From: a virus
Taxonomy: Duplodnaviria; Caudoviricetes
Virus record (IMG/VR): IMGVR_UViG_3300012667_000578
Span: 1-38,310 of that record
Reading direction: 5' to 3' (one strand)
DNA: 38,310 nucleotides
Shown here: in pieces, positions 2,152 to 38,310 of the stretch
Numbering within the stretch: position 1 is the stretch's first letter
Layout: each line of letters opens with the position of its first letter
Notes under the pieces: generated by a model
What the model was told of the DNA's origin: nothing
The model's database searches: none
Seen by the model: the letters and a program-made list of their open reading frames with translations, nothing else
Made by a program: the position numbers and the translations under genes

Positions 2152-2287
2152 GGCACTCTGCGCCGGGACCGAACAGGCGCGGGCTGAACATGCGGCGGCA
2201 TTGGCGAGCGATGGCGGGCCTCTTTCGCTGGTCACGGGATCGAGGCTGATCCGGCTCGTGGATGCGGGCTGTGCCAATGACACCTAG
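2060..2287 (+). CDS. Rz1: Outer-membrane lipoprotein spanin (Rz1-like), overlapping the i-spanin
   Basis: Signal peptide and lipobox LMLAMIPLCFASG|C, with an SD-like GAGGAG upstream of ATG 2060. Confidence 0.7.
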   Translation: MSKPANAWTRLMLAMIPLCFASGCVNAVSGEALCAGTEQARAEHAAALASDGGPLSLVTGSRLIRLVDAGCANDT

Positions 2288-3419
2288 ACAGCAACAGGCC
2301 ATCGAGGCGTTCAAGCGCACGGGAAACGTGGCCGAGGCTGCGCGCGAGATCGGGATAAATCGGCGCGACATGCAGCGGATGTTGGACCGCGCCGGTCTGA
2401 CCGGGGATGTCAGGGAAAAGTATCGCGTAGATCCGGCCATCGCTGACAGCATGGCGGCCGCCGGGACAAACATGGTGCCATCACTGGCTTGGGTGAAGGT
2501 GCAGCCGACCGATGACCAGCCCGGCTATTCCGTCATGCTGCGCCCCGATGCACAGCCGCCAGAGGCCGTTGCAGAGCGCATACGAGCGGCACTGGAGGGG
2601 CTTGTGCCGTCTGAGCCAGTGGTGGCCCCTGAAAGCGTCATGGCCGACCTGTGCGCCGTATATCCGCTCATGGACGCGCACGTTGGCATGTTGGCATGGG
2701 GGCGAGAGACGGGCGCGCAAGATTATGACCTAGAACACGCCGCGAAAGACATGCGGCACGCCTTCGCCAAGGTGCTGGCCATGACGCCAGCGGCCCAGCA
2801 GGCTGTTCTCCTGATCGGCGGCGATTACTTCCACAGCGACGATACGCGGGCCGAGACGCCAGCCAACCGCCACAGGCTGGACGTGGACGGGCGGTTCTGG
2901 AAGATCGTTGACGTTGGCATTGGGATCATCGCTGAAACAGTGGCACGTTTATTGGCAAAACATGCCAAATTGCATGTGCGCGTGCTGCGCGGCAACCATG
3001 ACCCACACTCCAGCATGACGCTCAACTTCGCGCTGGCCGAGCGTTACCGCAACGAGCCACGGATCACGGTCGAAAAAGAGCCGCGCGACTTGTTTATGAT
3101 GCAGTGGGGCAAGTGCGCCATCTTTGCCCACCACGGCGACAAGGGCAAACCGCAACAGATGGCGCTTTATTTGTCGGATGTCTGCCCGTTTTGGTCGCAA
3201 ACACGCCACAGGCACTACCTGACTGGCCACGTCCACCACGACCAAGCGAAAGACCTCGGGCCGCTGCGTTTTGAGAGCCTGCGCGCATTTTGCCCACCTG
3301 ATGCATATGCCGCTGGCATGGGCTACGGCGCGCGGCGGGCTTTGCAGTCAATCACCTTTCACAAGCAGGACGGTCTGGTGCTGCGCGCGCTAGATCCGAT
3401 TGATCGAGATGAAAGATAA
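2277..3419 (+). CDS. Calcineurin-like metallophosphoesterase with an N-terminal HTH
   Basis: Motifs DAHVG, GGDYFH, RGNHD, HHGD and GHVHH. The N-terminal GNVAEAAREIGINRRDMQRML is HTH-like. Confidence 0.85.
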   Translation: MTPRQQQAIEAFKRTGNVAEAAREIGINRRDMQRMLDRAGLTGDVREKYRVDPAIADSMAAAGTNMVPSLAWVKVQPTDDQPGYSVMLRPDAQPPEAVAERIRAALEGLVPSEPVVAPESVMADLCAVYPLMDAHVGMLAWGRETGAQDYDLEHAAKDMRHAFAKVLAMTPAAQQAVLLIGGDYFHSDDTRAETPANRHRLDVDGRFWKIVDVGIGIIAETVARLLAKHAKLHVRVLRGNHDPHSSMTLNFALAERYRNEPRITVEKEPRDLFMMQWGKCAIFAHHGDKGKPQQMALYLSDVCPFWSQTRHRHYLTGHVHHDQAKDLGPLRFESLRAFCPPDAYAAGMGYGARRALQSITFHKQDGLVLRALDPIDRDER

Positions 3420-3579
3420 CCTGCCCATCGCATCCTGGCGCGTTACGCGCGATGGCCTGATGGTGTCGATAAACCAGTATCATGGCGTGATACCATTCGG
3501 CCAATTCGGCGGGCTTGTGCTGGCGCTATTGCGGATGATGAAGGCTCGCGAGGGAAGCTATGGTGAAAATGAGCCGTAG
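3409..3579 (+). CDS. Small hypothetical protein (56 aa, hydrophobic segment), not in the ORF track
   Basis: Translation MKDNLPIASWRVTRDGLMVSINQYHGVIPFGQFGGLVLALLRMMKAREGSYGENEP. Its start overlaps the end of the phosphoesterase gene. Confidence 0.5.
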   Translation: MKDNLPIASWRVTRDGLMVSINQYHGVIPFGQFGGLVLALLRMMKAREGSYGENEP

Positions 3580-3647
3580 CGCAGTCTGATTTTCGACCAA
3601 ACACAAAGCCACCCGTGACGGTTTCTTGGATGTGTTGCTTCCCTCGC
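3548..3647 (-). ncRNA. Candidate ~100-nt structured RNA (three-way junction, C4-antisense-like architecture)
   Basis: Perfect 11-bp closing stem GCGAGGGAAGC/GCTTCCCTCGC enclosing two hairpin arms. A promoter is positioned to initiate at its first base. Confidence 0.6.
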
Positions 3648-3652
3648 AAATC

Positions 3653-3681
3653 GTTTTATCCAATCAGCTTCTGGCCTGCAA
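3653..3681 (-). promoter_or_regulatory. Putative sigma70-type promoter for the candidate ncRNA
   Basis: Minus strand reads TTGCAG-N17-TAAAAC, then 5 nt to the G at 3647. Confidence 0.55.
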
Positions 3682-3972
3682 TGGCCTTTTGTTCTCAAAC
3701 TCCTTTAACGCGCGTTCAATCGCACCGGGCTTGCAGGACCAGATAGCTTTCGTCTTTGGCTTTGCATCGGCCTCTTTCCAAAAGCGGCTTTTGGTCGATG
3801 GCATGTGCGGGTTGAACTTGGACAGCGCCAGGACAATGCCGAACCGCTCACATGCGGCCGCGATGCTGGAGCGGTGCATCTCGTAATGGTTGGCTGTCTG
3901 CGTGATGTTCCAGCCTTTTTCCTTAGCTGCGGTCAGCATGTCTTTGGTAATAATCCTGCGTTTCGGTGCCAC
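3664..3972 (-). CDS. Hypothetical HTH-like DNA-binding protein
   Basis: The segment GWNITQTANHYEMHRSSIAAACERFGI has an HTH pattern. Confidence 0.6.
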   Translation of the reverse strand: MAPKRRIITKDMLTAAKEKGWNITQTANHYEMHRSSIAAACERFGIVLALSKFNPHMPSTKSRFWKEADAKPKTKAIWSCKPGAIERALKEFENKRPLQARS

Positions 3973-4317: not shown

Positions 4318-4649
4318 GGCTGTTTCCCCTTCACCGCCACAATGAGCGGCGTAACTTGTGCGGCCTTTCGTGGCGCGTAGAGTTGGTGGTGGCGGGTTCG
4401 AATATTGCCGCCGACCGTGTCAAACCTCGCGTTCAGAACGGCGTCCATTGCAGCTCGACCTCCTGCCCACCCCTCTGTGTCGCCTATACCAATGGTTTCA
4501 AATTGCGATGCACCCATGAGGCACATGAGTATGCCGTGCGGTTCTGTTTCGGCCTCGTCAGCCTCGATGATCGCAGCAAGTTCTCGAAGTTGGCGCGCAA
4601 GCGTTCTTCGCGGGGCTGGGATGCCATGAAAGCCCACAATCTTGCTCAT
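4314..4649 (-). CDS. Hypothetical protein
   Basis: 111-aa ORF with ATGA overlaps within the operon. Confidence 0.65.
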   Translation of the reverse strand: MSKIVGFHGIPAPRRTLARQLRELAAIIEADEAETEPHGILMCLMGASQFETIGIGDTEGWAGGRAAMDAVLNARFDTVGGNIRTRHHQLYAPRKAAQVTPLIVAVKGKQP

Positions 4650-5200
4650 CCCTTCTCTCCCTCAACCTCGGCCAGCGTGGCGCGGGCTTTTTCGTAGGCT
4701 TTTCCAGCTTCAACAGGACATGAAAAATATCCCAAGCTTTTACGCTTCCCGTTGATCATAATTCGGGCTTGATATGGAAGGTTGCTCCTGCTTGTGTGAA
4801 CCGTCACGCCGGGCGGCTGACCATTTGATCTCGCAACCTTAAATGTCCGAAACGCTCGGCAGTTTTGAGCATGCGTCACATCTCTAAGATTAGAGATTCT
4901 ATTGTCAGACTTTACACCGTTAATGTGGTCAATTGTGTATTGCGGCCATTCGCCGTAATGCAATGCCCAGCAAACCCTGTGCGCAGGATAGAGTGTGTCA
5001 AAAATTGCTCCACACATATAGCCTCGCCTATTTGTATTTAAGGCAAGCGCGTTGACGTTCTGAGCGTTCCAAGTTTTGTATGCGCGAAGGCTGGAAAACA
5101 TTTCTTTAGGCCTCGGCAGCCAGAATAGCTTTCCAGTGTCAGGCTCATAGCGCAACAGTTGCCGCAACAATTCGGGTGTGATATTTGGATGGTCAGGCAT
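4646..5200 (-). CDS. HNH homing endonuclease (HNH_3 domain plus AP2-like C-terminus)
   Basis: Motifs LRYEPDTGKLFW, AHRVCWALHYG, IDHINGVKSDNRISNLR and SLGYF. The segment is lower in GC than its flanks. Confidence 0.9.
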   Translation of the reverse strand: MPDHPNITPELLRQLLRYEPDTGKLFWLPRPKEMFSSLRAYKTWNAQNVNALALNTNRRGYMCGAIFDTLYPAHRVCWALHYGEWPQYTIDHINGVKSDNRISNLRDVTHAQNCRAFRTFKVARSNGQPPGVTVHTSRSNLPYQARIMINGKRKSLGYFSCPVEAGKAYEKARATLAEVEGEKG

Positions 5201-6532: not shown

Positions 6533-6717
6533 GGCTCCACCTCCACATGCACGGGCAGCGTCTCGCACTGGAAATTATAGTCATAATCCAGCGTATCGCC
6601 GACCGGCTTCATCGCGGCCATGCAGGCGGCTTCGGTGACGTAGGGGATGCCAAACACATCCCCCGCCATCGGCCCGGATAAAGCAGTCACCCATAAAATA
6701 GTCATATAGATTGTCAT
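6529..6717 (-). CDS. Hypothetical protein, hydrophobic N-terminus, 2 Cys
   Basis: 62-aa coupled ORF. Confidence 0.65.
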   Translation of the reverse strand: MTIYMTILWVTALSGPMAGDVFGIPYVTEAACMAAMKPVGDTLDYDYNFQCETLPVHVEVEP

Positions 6718-7292
6718 GCTTTTCCCTCATGATGCCCGTGAAAAAACTCGCCATGCAGCACTTCTGCGGCGTTAGAATATGCTGCCGCAGCAATTGTTTC
6801 GTCTGAAAAGTAACCAAGGAATTTATACTTCTTGTTTACTTTTATTTGCGCCTGCCACTTCTGGGCGTGCTTGCACCATGTCACGCCCTTAAACCCCGAA
6901 GTGTTGTCTGCCCGCTTCCCGGTGTTGTGCCTGTTTTGTCCTGAGGTTGCCAATCGCAAGTTGCTTGCGCGATTGTCGCTCTTCACGCCGTTGATGTGAT
7001 CAATTTGCATTCCTATTGGAATGTCTCCATGCAGCAAAGTCCACACGACTCTATGTGCAAGATACTTTGTGCCGGAAATACTCCCAACTTTATGCCCCTT
7101 GTTGTTGGCCGTTGCGAAGGCCTCCCTTCCTGAAAAGCGTGCGCTCCAAGCGCGCCATGCCTGGGTAGATTTAAACATGCCCTGTGATCTTGACCGCCAA
7201 AACAAATTCCCAGTTTGGTGGTCATAACGCAGGATCTCGCTTAAAAACTCTTGGCTTGGCAATTCTGTGAATTTTTCCATCGTTGCGGTCAT
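6714..7292 (-). CDS. HNH homing endonuclease with AP2 DNA-binding domain
   Basis: Motifs LRYDHQTGNLFW, LAHRVVW, IDHINGVKSDNRASNLR and NTSGFKGV...WQAQIKVN...LGYF. ATG 7292 overlaps the upstream stop. Confidence 0.9.
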   Translation of the reverse strand: MTATMEKFTELPSQEFLSEILRYDHQTGNLFWRSRSQGMFKSTQAWRAWSARFSGREAFATANNKGHKVGSISGTKYLAHRVVWTLLHGDIPIGMQIDHINGVKSDNRASNLRLATSGQNRHNTGKRADNTSGFKGVTWCKHAQKWQAQIKVNKKYKFLGYFSDETIAAAAYSNAAEVLHGEFFHGHHEGKA

Positions 7293-7705
7293 TGTGCCAC
7301 CTGCATCAGCTCGTCCATCTCCAAAGCCCAAAGATCGGTGCGCGGCAACTTCATTGCCTCCAGCGCACGTTGCATCTCTGACGAGTTGACCTTCAGAAAG
7401 TGGGCCAGCTCATTCGTCGTCGCTGGCCCGCTCTCCAGTTCCTCGCGGATCTTGTCGGCCAGTGTCTTCTGCTGCGTCTCCGGAGCCGGCAGGCTGTCGT
7501 GCAGGGCGATGGCCAGCCACGGCGTCTTCTCGGGCTGCTGTGCATTCGGCACTACGCTGGCCATCACCTTCTGGCCGGGGCGCAGGCCTGTCTCCAAGGC
7601 AAGTTTGGAGGGGATAAAAACGTTCTGCGTCATGTCGCTGGCCAGCACGCCGAAGCTGGTCCCTGTCGGCAGGATATTCGTCACGATAACTTCAGTCGGT
7701 TCCAT
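7289..7705 (-). CDS. Putative OB-fold (cold-shock-like) plus winged-helix protein
   Basis: Beta-rich N-terminus (TSFGV...VFIPSKL...LRPGQKV) and an HTH-like C-terminus (LESGPATTNELAHFL). Confidence 0.55.
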   Translation of the reverse strand: MEPTEVIVTNILPTGTSFGVLASDMTQNVFIPSKLALETGLRPGQKVMASVVPNAQQPEKTPWLAIALHDSLPAPETQQKTLADKIREELESGPATTNELAHFLKVNSSEMQRALEAMKLPRTDLWALEMDELMQVAQ

Positions 7706-7988: not shown

Positions 7989-8678
7989 TTATTTTGTTGG
8001 TTCTGCGGGGCAAAGCGCGATGGTCTGGAAAATCCAGTCCTTGTATTTCTGCCACCGAGCCAAGGCCTTCACCCCGTCCATCGCGCGAATTTGCGCGTCA
8101 CTGAACGAGGCCCATTCTGCAATCGTGTGGCGCTCGCAACCGATCTGCATCACGTCGCTGGTGTAGGTGATGGCGTAAGTGTCAATCTGGATGCACTTGA
8201 TGTGGGGATTTGCGCCATGCGCACCGCTCAGGTTGGCACCGCGCAGGTTGGCATCGCTCAGGTCGGCACTGCGCAGGTTGGCACCGCTCAGGTTGGCACC
8301 GCGCAGGTTGGCATCGCTCAGGTCGGCACCGCTCAGGTTGGCACCGCGCAGGTTGGCACCGCTCAGGTTGGCACCGATCAGGTCGGCACTGCGCAGGTTG
8401 GCACCGCTCAGGTTGGCACTGCGCAGGTTGGCACCGCTCAGGTTGGCACCGATCAGGTTGGCACCGCTCAGGTTGGCACCGCGCAGGTTGGCACCGATCA
8501 GGTTGGCACCGCGCAGGTCGGCACCGCTCAGGTCGGCACCGCTCAGGTTGGCACCGTTTTCAATCCCCCACCGAACGGCTAGTCCGATCTTGATTGATGT
8601 GGCGGTATCGTCTGCGCAGTCAATTTTGGCGGTAAACTGCACCGCGCCGGTCCATCTGTTTTTAATTTCGAATTTCAT
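7989..8678 (-). CDS. Pentapeptide-repeat protein with a DUF5758-like C-terminal domain
   Basis: 22 A(N/D)L(S/R/I)(G/S/D) repeats followed by [21 protein letters not shown] before ATG 8678. Confidence 0.9.
8223..8556 (-). repeat. 15-bp tandem repeat array encoding the pentapeptides
   Basis: About 22 near-identical units of the GCACCGCTCAGGTTG type. Confidence 0.95.
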
Positions 8679-9057: not shown

Positions 9058-9143
9058 GGGAACCTCCCGGTTCATGCGCTGCGGGGCAGGATTGCCGCGC
9101 TCTGCGCTATGTTTGCTTGATTGCTTTCCTAGTTCGTATCCTC

Positions 9144-18727: not shown

Positions 18728-19035
18728 TTAGGGTCAAATTTCTCGGGACAAAAATAAAAGCAATTGAATCAAATGGTTATGGCCAGAAATCTCGCCACAT
18801 TTGATTTTTGCCATTATTTTCCCCGCGATTAAAGATAACACCATAGAAAGTAGGACACAAGGGGAAGGTCCTACTTTATACAAGAAAAGAAAGAACTGGT
18901 GGGGGAAGAAGTGTATATATATACCCCCCATCCCCCCCCCCTTTACTATTCTCCTAAGAAAACAAGAGGTTAGTGATTGCTATTTCTTCGGACAGGCATT
19001 GTCCGCATAAATGGGAGAAAAGGAAATTAAATCAT
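18711..19035. other. AT-rich non-coding region, putative replication origin
   Basis: Direct repeats GCTATTTCYTCGGACA at 18711 and 18979. IHF-consensus AATCAAATGGTTA at 18767. Palindrome GTATATATATAC at 18913-18924 between G and C runs. Confidence 0.55.
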
Positions 19036-36727: not shown

Positions 36728-38310
36728 ATGAATATGCCGCTTGCTCTGTTGAACCGTCGTCGCAGGGGTGGCGGCTTTTCCCCGAATGCCCTCTTTGCTC
36801 TTGCCGAACCCGGCGTCTGGTTCGACCCGTCTGACCTGACCACTTTGTTCCAAGACACCGCAGGCACGACGCCTGTGACGACGACTGGGCAATCCGTGGG
36901 CCTCATGCTGGATAAGTCCAAGGGGCTGGTGCTGGGGCCGGAGTTGCTTGCTGACCCTACGCTCGAAAACCCATCTTCTTGGACAGCTTCTGCTGTTAGT
37001 TTGGTCGTGACTGGTGGAAACGCGGTCTGGACCTCTGCTGCATCTGGGGTAAATCTACAGCCCTCTACTGGTCTGACCCCTGTAAGCGGTAGGTGGTACT
37101 ATGTAGAGGTGACCATTGCGTCGATTTCGGCAGGTGCTTTGCGCTTGAGCAACGAGGCAGGAACCGCCCTGTCTTCTGACTTCACTACGGCAGGGAAGAA
37201 GACCTTCTACGTTTTGGCTCCGTCCACCAGCAATCTTTCCCTGCGATCTGTTGGTACAACAACTGCATCTGTCTCTGATTATTCCGTCAAGGAACTCCCC
37301 GGCAACCACGCCGTGCAGGCCACCACTGCCAACCGCCCGATCTATGGTGTTCATCCTTTCGGTGGGCGTAGGAATTTGCTGGTGCGGACGGAGGATTTTG
37401 AGAATGCGAGTTGGTTAAAGCAAAGCGCAGGGACAGGTGTCGTTCCTGTTGTGACCACCAATGCAGCAATTGCCCCAGATGGCACAACTACTGCTGATCT
37501 CGTCTCCTTTAACCGTGGCGCGGGGAACCTTGTCGCTGACCGCAGCGTCCTCGTGCAGGCACCCAGCGGGATTACGTCTGCCACTTACGTTGGCAGTATT
37601 TGGCTTAAAGCTGCTACATCTGGTGACATCGGAAAGCAGATAGGTGTTCGCACTGTTGGTGGTTCTACCTACGGTGTTGAAACGCTTACTGCCGATTGGG
37701 TGCGCGTTACGAGGGTTGAAACAGGCTCATCTTCAAACTTTGAACTTGCGTCTCGTGGAACAATCACGGCAGACAATCAGGTATCTGTCCTCATCTGGGG
37801 CGCACAACTCGAAACAGGCTCCACCGCCACGGCCTACCAGCGCGTGACCGACCAATACAACGTCACCGAGGCTGGTGTGTCGTCTGTCAGCTACCTGTTC
37901 TTCGACGGGGTAAACGACAGCTTGGCTACCTCCACGATCACGCCGGGGGTTGATAAGGCTCAAGTGTTCGCCGGGGTGCGGAACCTGCAAACTTTAGCTG
38001 TTGGAGCTATTGTCGAACACTCAGCGTCTACTGCTACCAATAATGGCGCATTTATCCTCGCCGCCCGCGAAGGTGTCTCAAACTACTTCTTTGGCCCAAA
38101 GGGAACTGTTGGCGCAGAGGTTAGGTCTCCAGCAAGTTACCCGGCCCCCATTACCAACACCCTAACAGGCATCGGTGACATCTCAGGGGACAGCGCCGCG
38201 TTGCGCGTAAACGGCACCCAAGTTGCCACATCGACCACTGACCAAGGCACAGGCAACTTCCTCGCCTATCCGCTCTACATCGGCGCACGGGCAAGCACGT
38301 CCTTGTTCTT
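36728..38310 (+). CDS. Modular LamG/lectin-like virion spike or receptor-binding protein (open to the window end; C-terminal allele B)
   Basis: Translated by hand with no stop. Segments: WFDPSDLTTLFQDTAGTTPV...LMLDKS; insert GPELL...SVKELPGNHAVQ; insert RNLL..TEDF...WGAQLETGSTATAYQ; then YLFFDGVNDSL plus a LamG-like region. About 562 aa if joined to 1-506. Confidence 0.8.
   Translation, partial: MNMPLALLNRRRRGGGFSPNALFALAEPGVWFDPSDLTTLFQDTAGTTPVTTTGQSVGLMLDKSKGLVLGPELLADPTLENPSSWTASAVSLVVTGGNAVWTSAASGVNLQPSTGLTPVSGRWYYVEVTIASISAGALRLSNEAGTALSSDFTTAGKKTFYVLAPSTSNLSLRSVGTTTASVSDYSVKELPGNHAVQATTANRPIYGVHPFGGRRNLLVRTEDFENASWLKQSAGTGVVPVVTTNAAIAPDGTTTADLVSFNRGAGNLVADRSVLVQAPSGITSATYVGSIWLKAATSGDIGKQIGVRTVGGSTYGVETLTADWVRVTRVETGSSSNFELASRGTITADNQVSVLIWGAQLETGSTATAYQRVTDQYNVTEAGVSSVSYLFFDGVNDSLATSTITPGVDKAQVFAGVRNLQTLAVGAIVEHSASTATNNGAFILAAREGVSNYFFGPKGTVGAEVRSPASYPAPITNTLTGIGDISGDSAALRVNGTQVATSTTDQGTGNFLAYPLYIGARASTSLF

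Follow-up and report, generated by a model that had tools for sequence, protein, structure and literature searches.

A predicted RNA of about 100 nt encoded by the 38.3-kb virus record IMGVR_UViG_3300012667_000578 belongs to a conserved, undescribed family with covarying stems, and its partner is very probably a host tRNA-Pro. The whole record, 38,310 nt in length and referred to here as the window, was analysed; the RNA lies on its minus strand (3548..3647). From its sequence complementarities we consider the RNA to be, probably, a dedicated anti-tRNA of Rhodobacteraceae phages: a caged two-part antisense RNA that would invade a single isoacceptor from both ends, track host variants of this tRNA, and either reprogram proline decoding or feed the opened tRNA to an enzyme.

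Structure, promoter pattern and family of the RNA

The plus strand of the window carries the capsid, portal, terminase and lysis genes and the minus strand carries most of the early and replication genes, with the element at the convergence point of the late and early operons. The late operon ends with a gene for a calcineurin-like phosphoesterase (phrog_704; 2262..3419, plus strand), which is a frequent, non-obligatory neighbour of the RNA; the last ORF of the early operon, with a weak HTH, is found at 3664..3972 on the minus strand. A small ORF on the plus strand (3400-3579) has its last codons within the element. This ORF is missing at some of the RNA loci, so coding does not explain the conservation of the element.

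The first-pass annotation of this DNA had described a three-way junction in which a perfect 11-bp closing stem encloses two arms, and this architecture is confirmed in the sequence and in the minus-strand fold. The closing stem, P1, is formed by a 5′ strand at 3637..3647, supported by the covariation of aligned pairs, and a 3′ strand at 3548..3558, supported by the minus-strand fold and covariation. Arm 1 (3600..3636) is a variable hairpin, long in the window and much shorter in many relatives, and likely has a structural role. Arm 2 contains the segment UGGUCG (3594..3599), the complement of the tRNA-Pro 3′ end CGACCA (nt 71-76), and a guide segment (3571..3591) with 21 contiguous pairs, two of them G-U, to nt 2-20a of tRNA-Pro(GGG); the numbering of these tRNA positions (nt 2-20a, 71-76) is the one that we assume throughout. 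Within the guide lie an exact 16-nt complement of tRNA-Pro(GGG) (3573-3588) and an exposed pentaloop, CGCUA (3577-3581). The 3′ strand of arm 2 (3561..3570) ends in ACCA and, in the predicted fold, keeps the guide and UGGU caged as long as the RNA is free. The minus-strand fold of the element, a three-way junction, has an energy of -42.9 kcal/mol (z -5.56), with equally stable structures in 0 of 200 shuffles; the plus-strand fold is weaker (-40.0, z -3.89). The fold and the alignment are accompanied by a score of 79.8 bits with model R1, a value that is not independent, as R1 was built from the family sequences that it scores.

A named RNA family had not been assignable at first reading, and the Rfam search agrees: there was no match in the window at the gathering score, and the loose cut-off gave only chance C/D-box matches (E 0.75-5.9) and no C4 even at E 10. 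The RNA had also been said to lack tRNA hallmarks. This stands in so far as ARAGORN finds no tRNA in the element, a cloverleaf with D, anticodon and T arms is absent, and the Rfam tRNA model has 0 matches in G000; what was overlooked is the match of arm 2, in reverse complement, to both ends of tRNA-Pro. The window RNA contains no AUG-initiated ORF.

A promoter pattern precedes the RNA on the minus strand. The -35-like box TTGCAG (3676..3681), inside the last codons of the ORF at 3664-3972, is separated by 17 nt from the -10-like box TAAAAC (3653..3658), as had been described; the predicted +1 at about 3646 is a start site derived from box spacing. A generic sigma-70 scan omitted this promoter because it requires T at position 6 of the -10 box. 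The combination of TTG and TA with a spacing of 16-18 nt, 33-40 nt upstream of the RNA, is kept in 60 of 60 distinct flanks, while it occurs in 0 of 64 on the opposite side and at 0.8% of random window positions. The presence of the pattern on one side only places the RNA on the minus strand, with +1 near 3646. A consistent U-rich terminator was not found 3′ of the RNA (12 of 56 flanks), and its 3′ end is therefore taken from the closing stem. RNA data from four runs contributed one 154-nt contig from a relative; it spans the promoter and thus shows no discrete RNA. The earlier proposal of a stand-alone minus-strand RNA is borne out as regards a conserved structured gene with covarying stems and its own promoter pattern, and fails as regards a C4/CI mode of action, which is considered below.

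Fifteen loci came from a pattern scan of IMG/VR, and 14 of them are homologs with sharp borders amid unrelated flanks. A further 80 loci were fetched via the neighbouring phosphoesterase protein; this was meant to lessen selection on the loop, although recognition of the RNA at these protein-anchored loci still depended on the loop core. The RNA was present 11-234 nt downstream, on the opposite strand, at 48 of the 80; two were too short and 30 gave no hit. Three of these 30 were later found to carry the RNA, which brings the count to 51 of 78 neighbour-anchored loci, and two more of the 30 records hold it at another place. The final alignment consists of 69 distinct variants, with nine chance-level rows and the mis-trimmed L064 left out and rows from the later finds put in. 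Pairing holds in 95.9% of the cells of 21 named pairs, and changes on either strand occur together in 11 of these pairs, so that the covariation foreseen for homologs of the RNA was observed; 0 of 500 shuffles reach this level, and slid controls give 38-57% pairing. For the nine aligned pairs of P1, 97.6% of cells pair, with both-sided changes in six. Arm 1 was excluded from the pair counts because it aligns poorly, and, as 51 of the 69 variants have an identical closing stem through kinship, the cells are not independent events.

The capsid and replication genes of the RNA-bearing phages have little or no tblastn match to those of the window. A scan of GTDB found, among 34 matches, three genuine copies of the RNA in MAG contigs, and BLAST of the element against cultured phages gave chance matches only. 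The closest cultured phages, Octadecabacter virus OADV2 by capsid (69.6%) and Sulfitobacter phage pCB2047-A by phosphoesterase (55.6%), have no copy of the RNA; their identity points to a Rhodobacteraceae host. A search for a chromosomal homolog in the host family, made with 30 candidates scored per genome and without a positive control, was negative in 146 of 146 genomes.

The slot beside the phosphoesterase gene is occupied differently in some relatives. A clade without the tRNA-Pro RNA (L081, L086, L087, L088, L092, L095 and L096) has a different conserved structured element of about 60 nt, on the opposite strand and just downstream of the phosphoesterase. In the same slot, L090 and L095 have a third hairpin with a pyrimidine-rich loop resembling an anti-Shine-Dalgarno sequence, and L090 has more hairpins. 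No long tRNA complement was found in the other same-slot elements, the longest being at most 11 nt. At L048:3515-4270 the phosphoesterase and a complete copy of the RNA are separated by an HNH-like gene, with a duplicated RNA 3′ piece beside the phosphoesterase; this looks like an insertion at the RNA 3′ end. Elsewhere in the window, the early operon includes two HNH endonuclease genes and a pentapeptide-repeat gene with a 15-nt period (4646-5200, 6714-7331 and 8146-8640), and a palindrome composed of a G-run, TA-repeat and C-run (18898-18939), possibly an origin or packaging signal, is situated between the primase and terminase genes. The window ends (1-397 and 37911-38310) have common stretches of 77 nt and 74 nt with 95% and 93% identity, 37,910-37,913 apart, which represent either an imperfect overlap of the termini or the duplication of a tail-gene segment.

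Complementarity to Rhodobacteraceae tRNA-Pro

The reverse complement of arm 2 was presumed to be tRNA-Pro-like before any genome was tested, and tRNA targets were tested on genomes from the family of Paracoccus sp. JM45 (201 sampled). A 14-nt core matches 40 places in 32 of the 201 genomes, against 12 for a reversed-pattern control. Thirty core-matching loci were fetched, of which 27 are tRNA-Pro according to ARAGORN, one is a truncated tRNA-Pro-like gene and two are outside tRNAs. In the complete genome G046, with 43 distinct tRNAs, the longest exact antisense matches (16, 14 and 14 nt) are to three tRNA-Pro, and the remaining 40 tRNAs reach at most 7 nt. When the window was divided into 765 tiles, a 16-nt match was reached only by two tiles over the element. 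Among the G046 tRNAs, tRNA-Pro(GGG) alone co-folds with the RNA (ddG -10.3), in a predicted complex with 21 pairs to nt 2-20a and six pairs to CGACCA; the only tRNAs of the 43 ending in GACCA are the three tRNA-Pro, and the match to this Pro-specific end is a second one, independent of the guide.

The pairing is maintained across the family. The 3′-end segment is UGGUCG in 50 of the 69 variants (a script count, with one further row mis-picked), UGGUCA in 12 and CGGUCG in three. UGGU itself is near-invariant, while its own 3′ partner varies (ACCA, AUCA, ACCU, CCCA); were the tRNA end the true partner, the RNA's ACCA should vary more than UGGU. For 66 of the 69 variants, Pro(GGG) scores best of the 43 tRNAs. 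Among 25 distinct guides without gaps, a set that leaves out 10 rows needing gaps, pairing at nt 2-20a holds in 518 of 525 cells. Base-level trans-covariation is weak: compatibility is kept by nine of 14 alternative bases where 4.7 would be expected, and all nine are transitions, in a test where most of the guide core was fixed by the search patterns.

Divergent lineages, which are more informative than the single bases, show further forms of the same complementarity. In L074 and L137 the pairing is stretched toward tRNA nt 22-24, and a lineage with UAACCA has an altered middle and still forms 13 bp plus 6 bp to the D-loop. The three exceptional variants form 13 bp plus 7-8 bp with another tRNA-Pro 5′ type, a tRNA-Pro(CGG) that occurs in two of 301 alphaproteobacterial genomes (G342 and G493) and was looked for after these RNAs had been seen. 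A pattern with the D-loop side left free gave 47 hits, 16 of them with closing stem and promoter and mostly from known lineages; one new lineage (L519/L548) has one A missing and matches the D-loop type without U20a. A Pro-best score does not discriminate among the hits of this pattern (it is reached by 21 of 30 chance-looking ones), because the pattern forces Pro. Full 21-bp pairing requires a tRNA with a CGGGCCG start, U16 and a GGUUAG D-loop, and all three are present in nine of the 201 family genomes; with a C16 mismatch allowed, the type with this start and D-loop is present in 32. Most genomes of the family have the tRNA-Pro start CGGGCUAU instead.

Two other tRNA-like features were noted in related records. 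At L104:10500-10612 a tRNA-Val-like fragment (17-nt sense match) adjoins a weak remnant of an anti-tRNA-Pro loop, on which model R1 gives no score. A long conserved hairpin with an 11-nt tRNA-Pro 5′-like stretch in its arms is found at L083:11382-11468, L098:20885-20971 and L105:9611-9697; it was seen in one of 17 records scanned and is absent from the window.

Proposed mode of action and alternative readings

We lean towards a mechanism in which the RNA would bind host tRNA-Pro(GGG), open its acceptor stem and D arm, and so remove the tRNA from translation. Host RNA polymerase would transcribe the RNA from about 3646, and in the free RNA the guide would be caged by its own 3′ strand, ending in ACCA. 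Pairing could start with the free ACCA end of the tRNA displacing the RNA's ACCA from UGGU, or with the CGCUA loop meeting nt 8-12 of a nascent or unfolded tRNA; branch migration would then produce a complex of 21 bp plus 6 bp that could not be charged and would perhaps be degraded. Because the predicted complex would destroy the acceptor stem, the reading is one of sequestration or destabilisation, possibly of the nascent tRNA. Decoding of CCC and CCU would slow or pass to tRNA-Pro(UGG), and host genes, being richer in CCC, would be hurt more than those of the phage.

In energetic terms, opening arm 2 costs 14.7 kcal/mol, and a rough additive estimate for Pro(GGG) puts the 5′ duplex at -15.9, or at about -29 once the 3′ helix is included, compared with -5.3 (UGG) and -3.6 (CGG) for the 5′ duplex only with the other isoacceptors; these estimates ignore tRNA tertiary structure and modifications. 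As tRNA nt 2-13 are buried in the folded mature tRNA, the kinetics would be doubtful without a chaperone or a nascent tRNA. Median use of CCC relative to other NNC codons is 0.465 in 14 RNA-bearing phages and 0.59 in six without the RNA (p 0.035), a weak comparison that is phylogenetically confounded because the phages are not independent; the corresponding values are 0.74 and 0.68 in two host-family genomes. A cruder codon pass, in which two records were misclassified, gave no difference (0.217 vs 0.199), and the RNA-bearing phages still encode 10-35% of their prolines with CCC. No replacement tRNA-Pro was found in 36 RNA-bearing records, one of which has a tRNA gene, for tRNA-Met.

The first-pass annotation had drawn an analogy to C4 and CI RNAs, with control of the phage's own mRNAs through exposed elements of 7-8 nt. 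We now regard this as extremely unlikely. The complement of the loop, TAGCGCA, does occur in two leader-like stretches of the early operon, near 9105 and 5265, but these sites are not conserved at corresponding positions in relatives, and TAGCGCA is unevenly distributed between the strands (47 vs 25) much as TAG itself is (3299 vs 1925); the early leader near 9105 was rejected as a target. The best exact matches inside the phage genomes are 8-12 nt long and scattered at unrelated places, and with G-U pairs allowed they extend to 12-16 nt, likewise at unrelated places; the tRNA reaches 21 in most records. No conserved internal target emerged from 17 RNA-bearing records, in a search that ignored the G528 row in its G-U version (wrong site) and missed G517 and G536 with the exact-match pattern, and Rfam gives no C4 match. 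It is also unlikely that the tRNA serves as a signal, with uncharged or unprocessed tRNA-Pro switching the RNA in a T-box-like manner to free its 3′ strand or a protein and thereby tune phage development. Such a sensor would account for a near-invariant UGGU facing the tRNA ACCA end beside a variable partner strand, and for an avoidance of CCC that is only partial, and T-boxes are described in PMC9111926 as pairing with uncharged tRNA 3′ ends. Against it, the window has no same-strand gene downstream of the RNA, Rfam gives no T-box match, a freed strand has no conserved internal target, and a 21-bp duplex is nearly irreversible, which fits a trap better.

A quite unlikely reading makes the RNA a guide or template, by which the opened tRNA is cut, modified, or lengthened at its 3′ end with arm 1 as the template, in the manner of retroviral tRNA priming. 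The co-fold is compatible with this, in that binding of nt 2-20a would free the tRNA 3′ strand for UGGUCG, beside arm 1, and the window encodes a Prim-Pol as well as the adjacent phosphoesterase. However, an RVT_1 match was found in 0 of 36 RNA-bearing records, nine of them at least 90% complete, a search that leaves a host enzyme possible; tblastn matches to any one window protein never extend to all 18 other records, and for the window's primase gene there are none at all. Arm 1 furthermore varies widely in sequence and length, and the 5′ leaders of the tRNA genes do not prolong the pairing into an RNase P guide register. We find it highly unlikely that the tRNA match is a relic, an inverted tRNA-Pro fragment or att site, in an element that now serves as a protein-binding RNA or bidirectional terminator. 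The position between convergent late and early operons and the folding of both strands would suit a terminator of this kind, and part of the variation is accounted for by the internal pairing of arm 2 itself. Yet the matched pieces (nt 2-20a, then 71-76) do not form an att-like contiguous end, new tRNA complementarity has been gained in divergent lineages, the promoter pattern is on one side only, and no integrase is present among 29 window proteins scanned.

Sequestration of tRNA-Pro(GGG), the reading that we prefer, would bear on the phage-host conflict over tRNA, which to our knowledge involves nucleases, toxins and replacement tRNAs. If true, the disabling of one particular host tRNA by base pairing with a phage RNA would add a new layer to this conflict, as a protein-free switch-off of a chosen tRNA, and would belong to a wider class of phage RNAs targeting host housekeeping RNAs. 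In E. coli, according to PMC4519876, tRNA-Pro(UGG) is a weak reader of CCC and prone to frameshifting; by analogy, loss of tRNA-Pro(GGG) could alter both the fidelity of the frame and the speed of decoding, with the proviso that the E. coli behaviour may not hold in alphaproteobacteria. The guide sequence would in turn predict the tRNA type of the host, and could be seen as a natural design for programmable tRNA knock-down.

Comparison with known systems

Like P1/P7 C4 and P4 CI, the RNA comes from a phage, is short with several stems, and has a closing stem and a promoter of its own. Paired target boxes of C4 and CI RNAs are conserved in the phage's own transcript, and these RNAs are processed by RNase P out of a longer precursor. 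Here, by contrast, neither a conserved target among phage mRNAs nor an Rfam C4 match was found, and the predicted target is a host tRNA; the +1 predicted from promoter spacing falls on the closing stem itself. T-boxes have a UGGN bulge, and the specifier loop of their Stem I reads the anticodon. The likeness to them is one of sequence complementarity only, a UGGN-type element opposite the tRNA NCCA end, whereas an Rfam match, an anticodon contact and a downstream operon are all absent; a T-box reads the shape of a tRNA, while the RNA described here would unfold it. At 51 of 78 anchored loci the element is directed at the end of an operon on the other strand, and it is not the leader of a regulated gene. 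The primer-binding sites of retroviruses and LTR elements are complements of a tRNA 3′ end that begin with UGG, and they make additional contacts with other parts of the tRNA. The RNA differs in having 6 nt at the 3′ end and no reverse transcriptase in 36 records, and in being a small stand-alone gene of a DNA phage.

CreT RNA toxins, which act by way of a mini-ORF with consecutive rare codons (PMC8501985), resemble the proposed mechanism in that a small RNA takes one tRNA species out of use. The match here is to the tRNA body and 3′ end and not to the anticodon, and there is no AUG ORF; in the alignment, the conserved core is the anti-tRNA sequence and not a mini-ORF. The nearest printed case (bioRxiv 10.64898/2026.09.02.748885) is the heterodimer of E. 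coli tRNA-LysT and tRNA-ArgU, a weak pairing (-8.64 kcal/mol) in which an RNA sequesters a tRNA by pairing with regions normally inside the cloverleaf. Both partners in that case are host tRNAs, whereas here a dedicated phage gene would supply a caged guide of 21 bp plus 6 bp.

The literature searched, which consisted mostly of non-subscription papers, contained no report of a phage RNA pairing with a host tRNA. The guide core has no match in the searched supplements of Fremin 2023 (PMC10690425), which exclude files 1 and 2, and the motif may be among the unannotated candidates in these two files. Membership of the C4/CI, T-box, CreT and tRNA-primed retroelement classes fails on the features tested. 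Taken together, its own promoter pattern, conserved structure and conserved complementarity to a host RNA, each found computationally, are those of phage base-pairing sRNAs and sponges, and the sequence suggests that the RNA would work most like a sponge, with a tRNA as its target.
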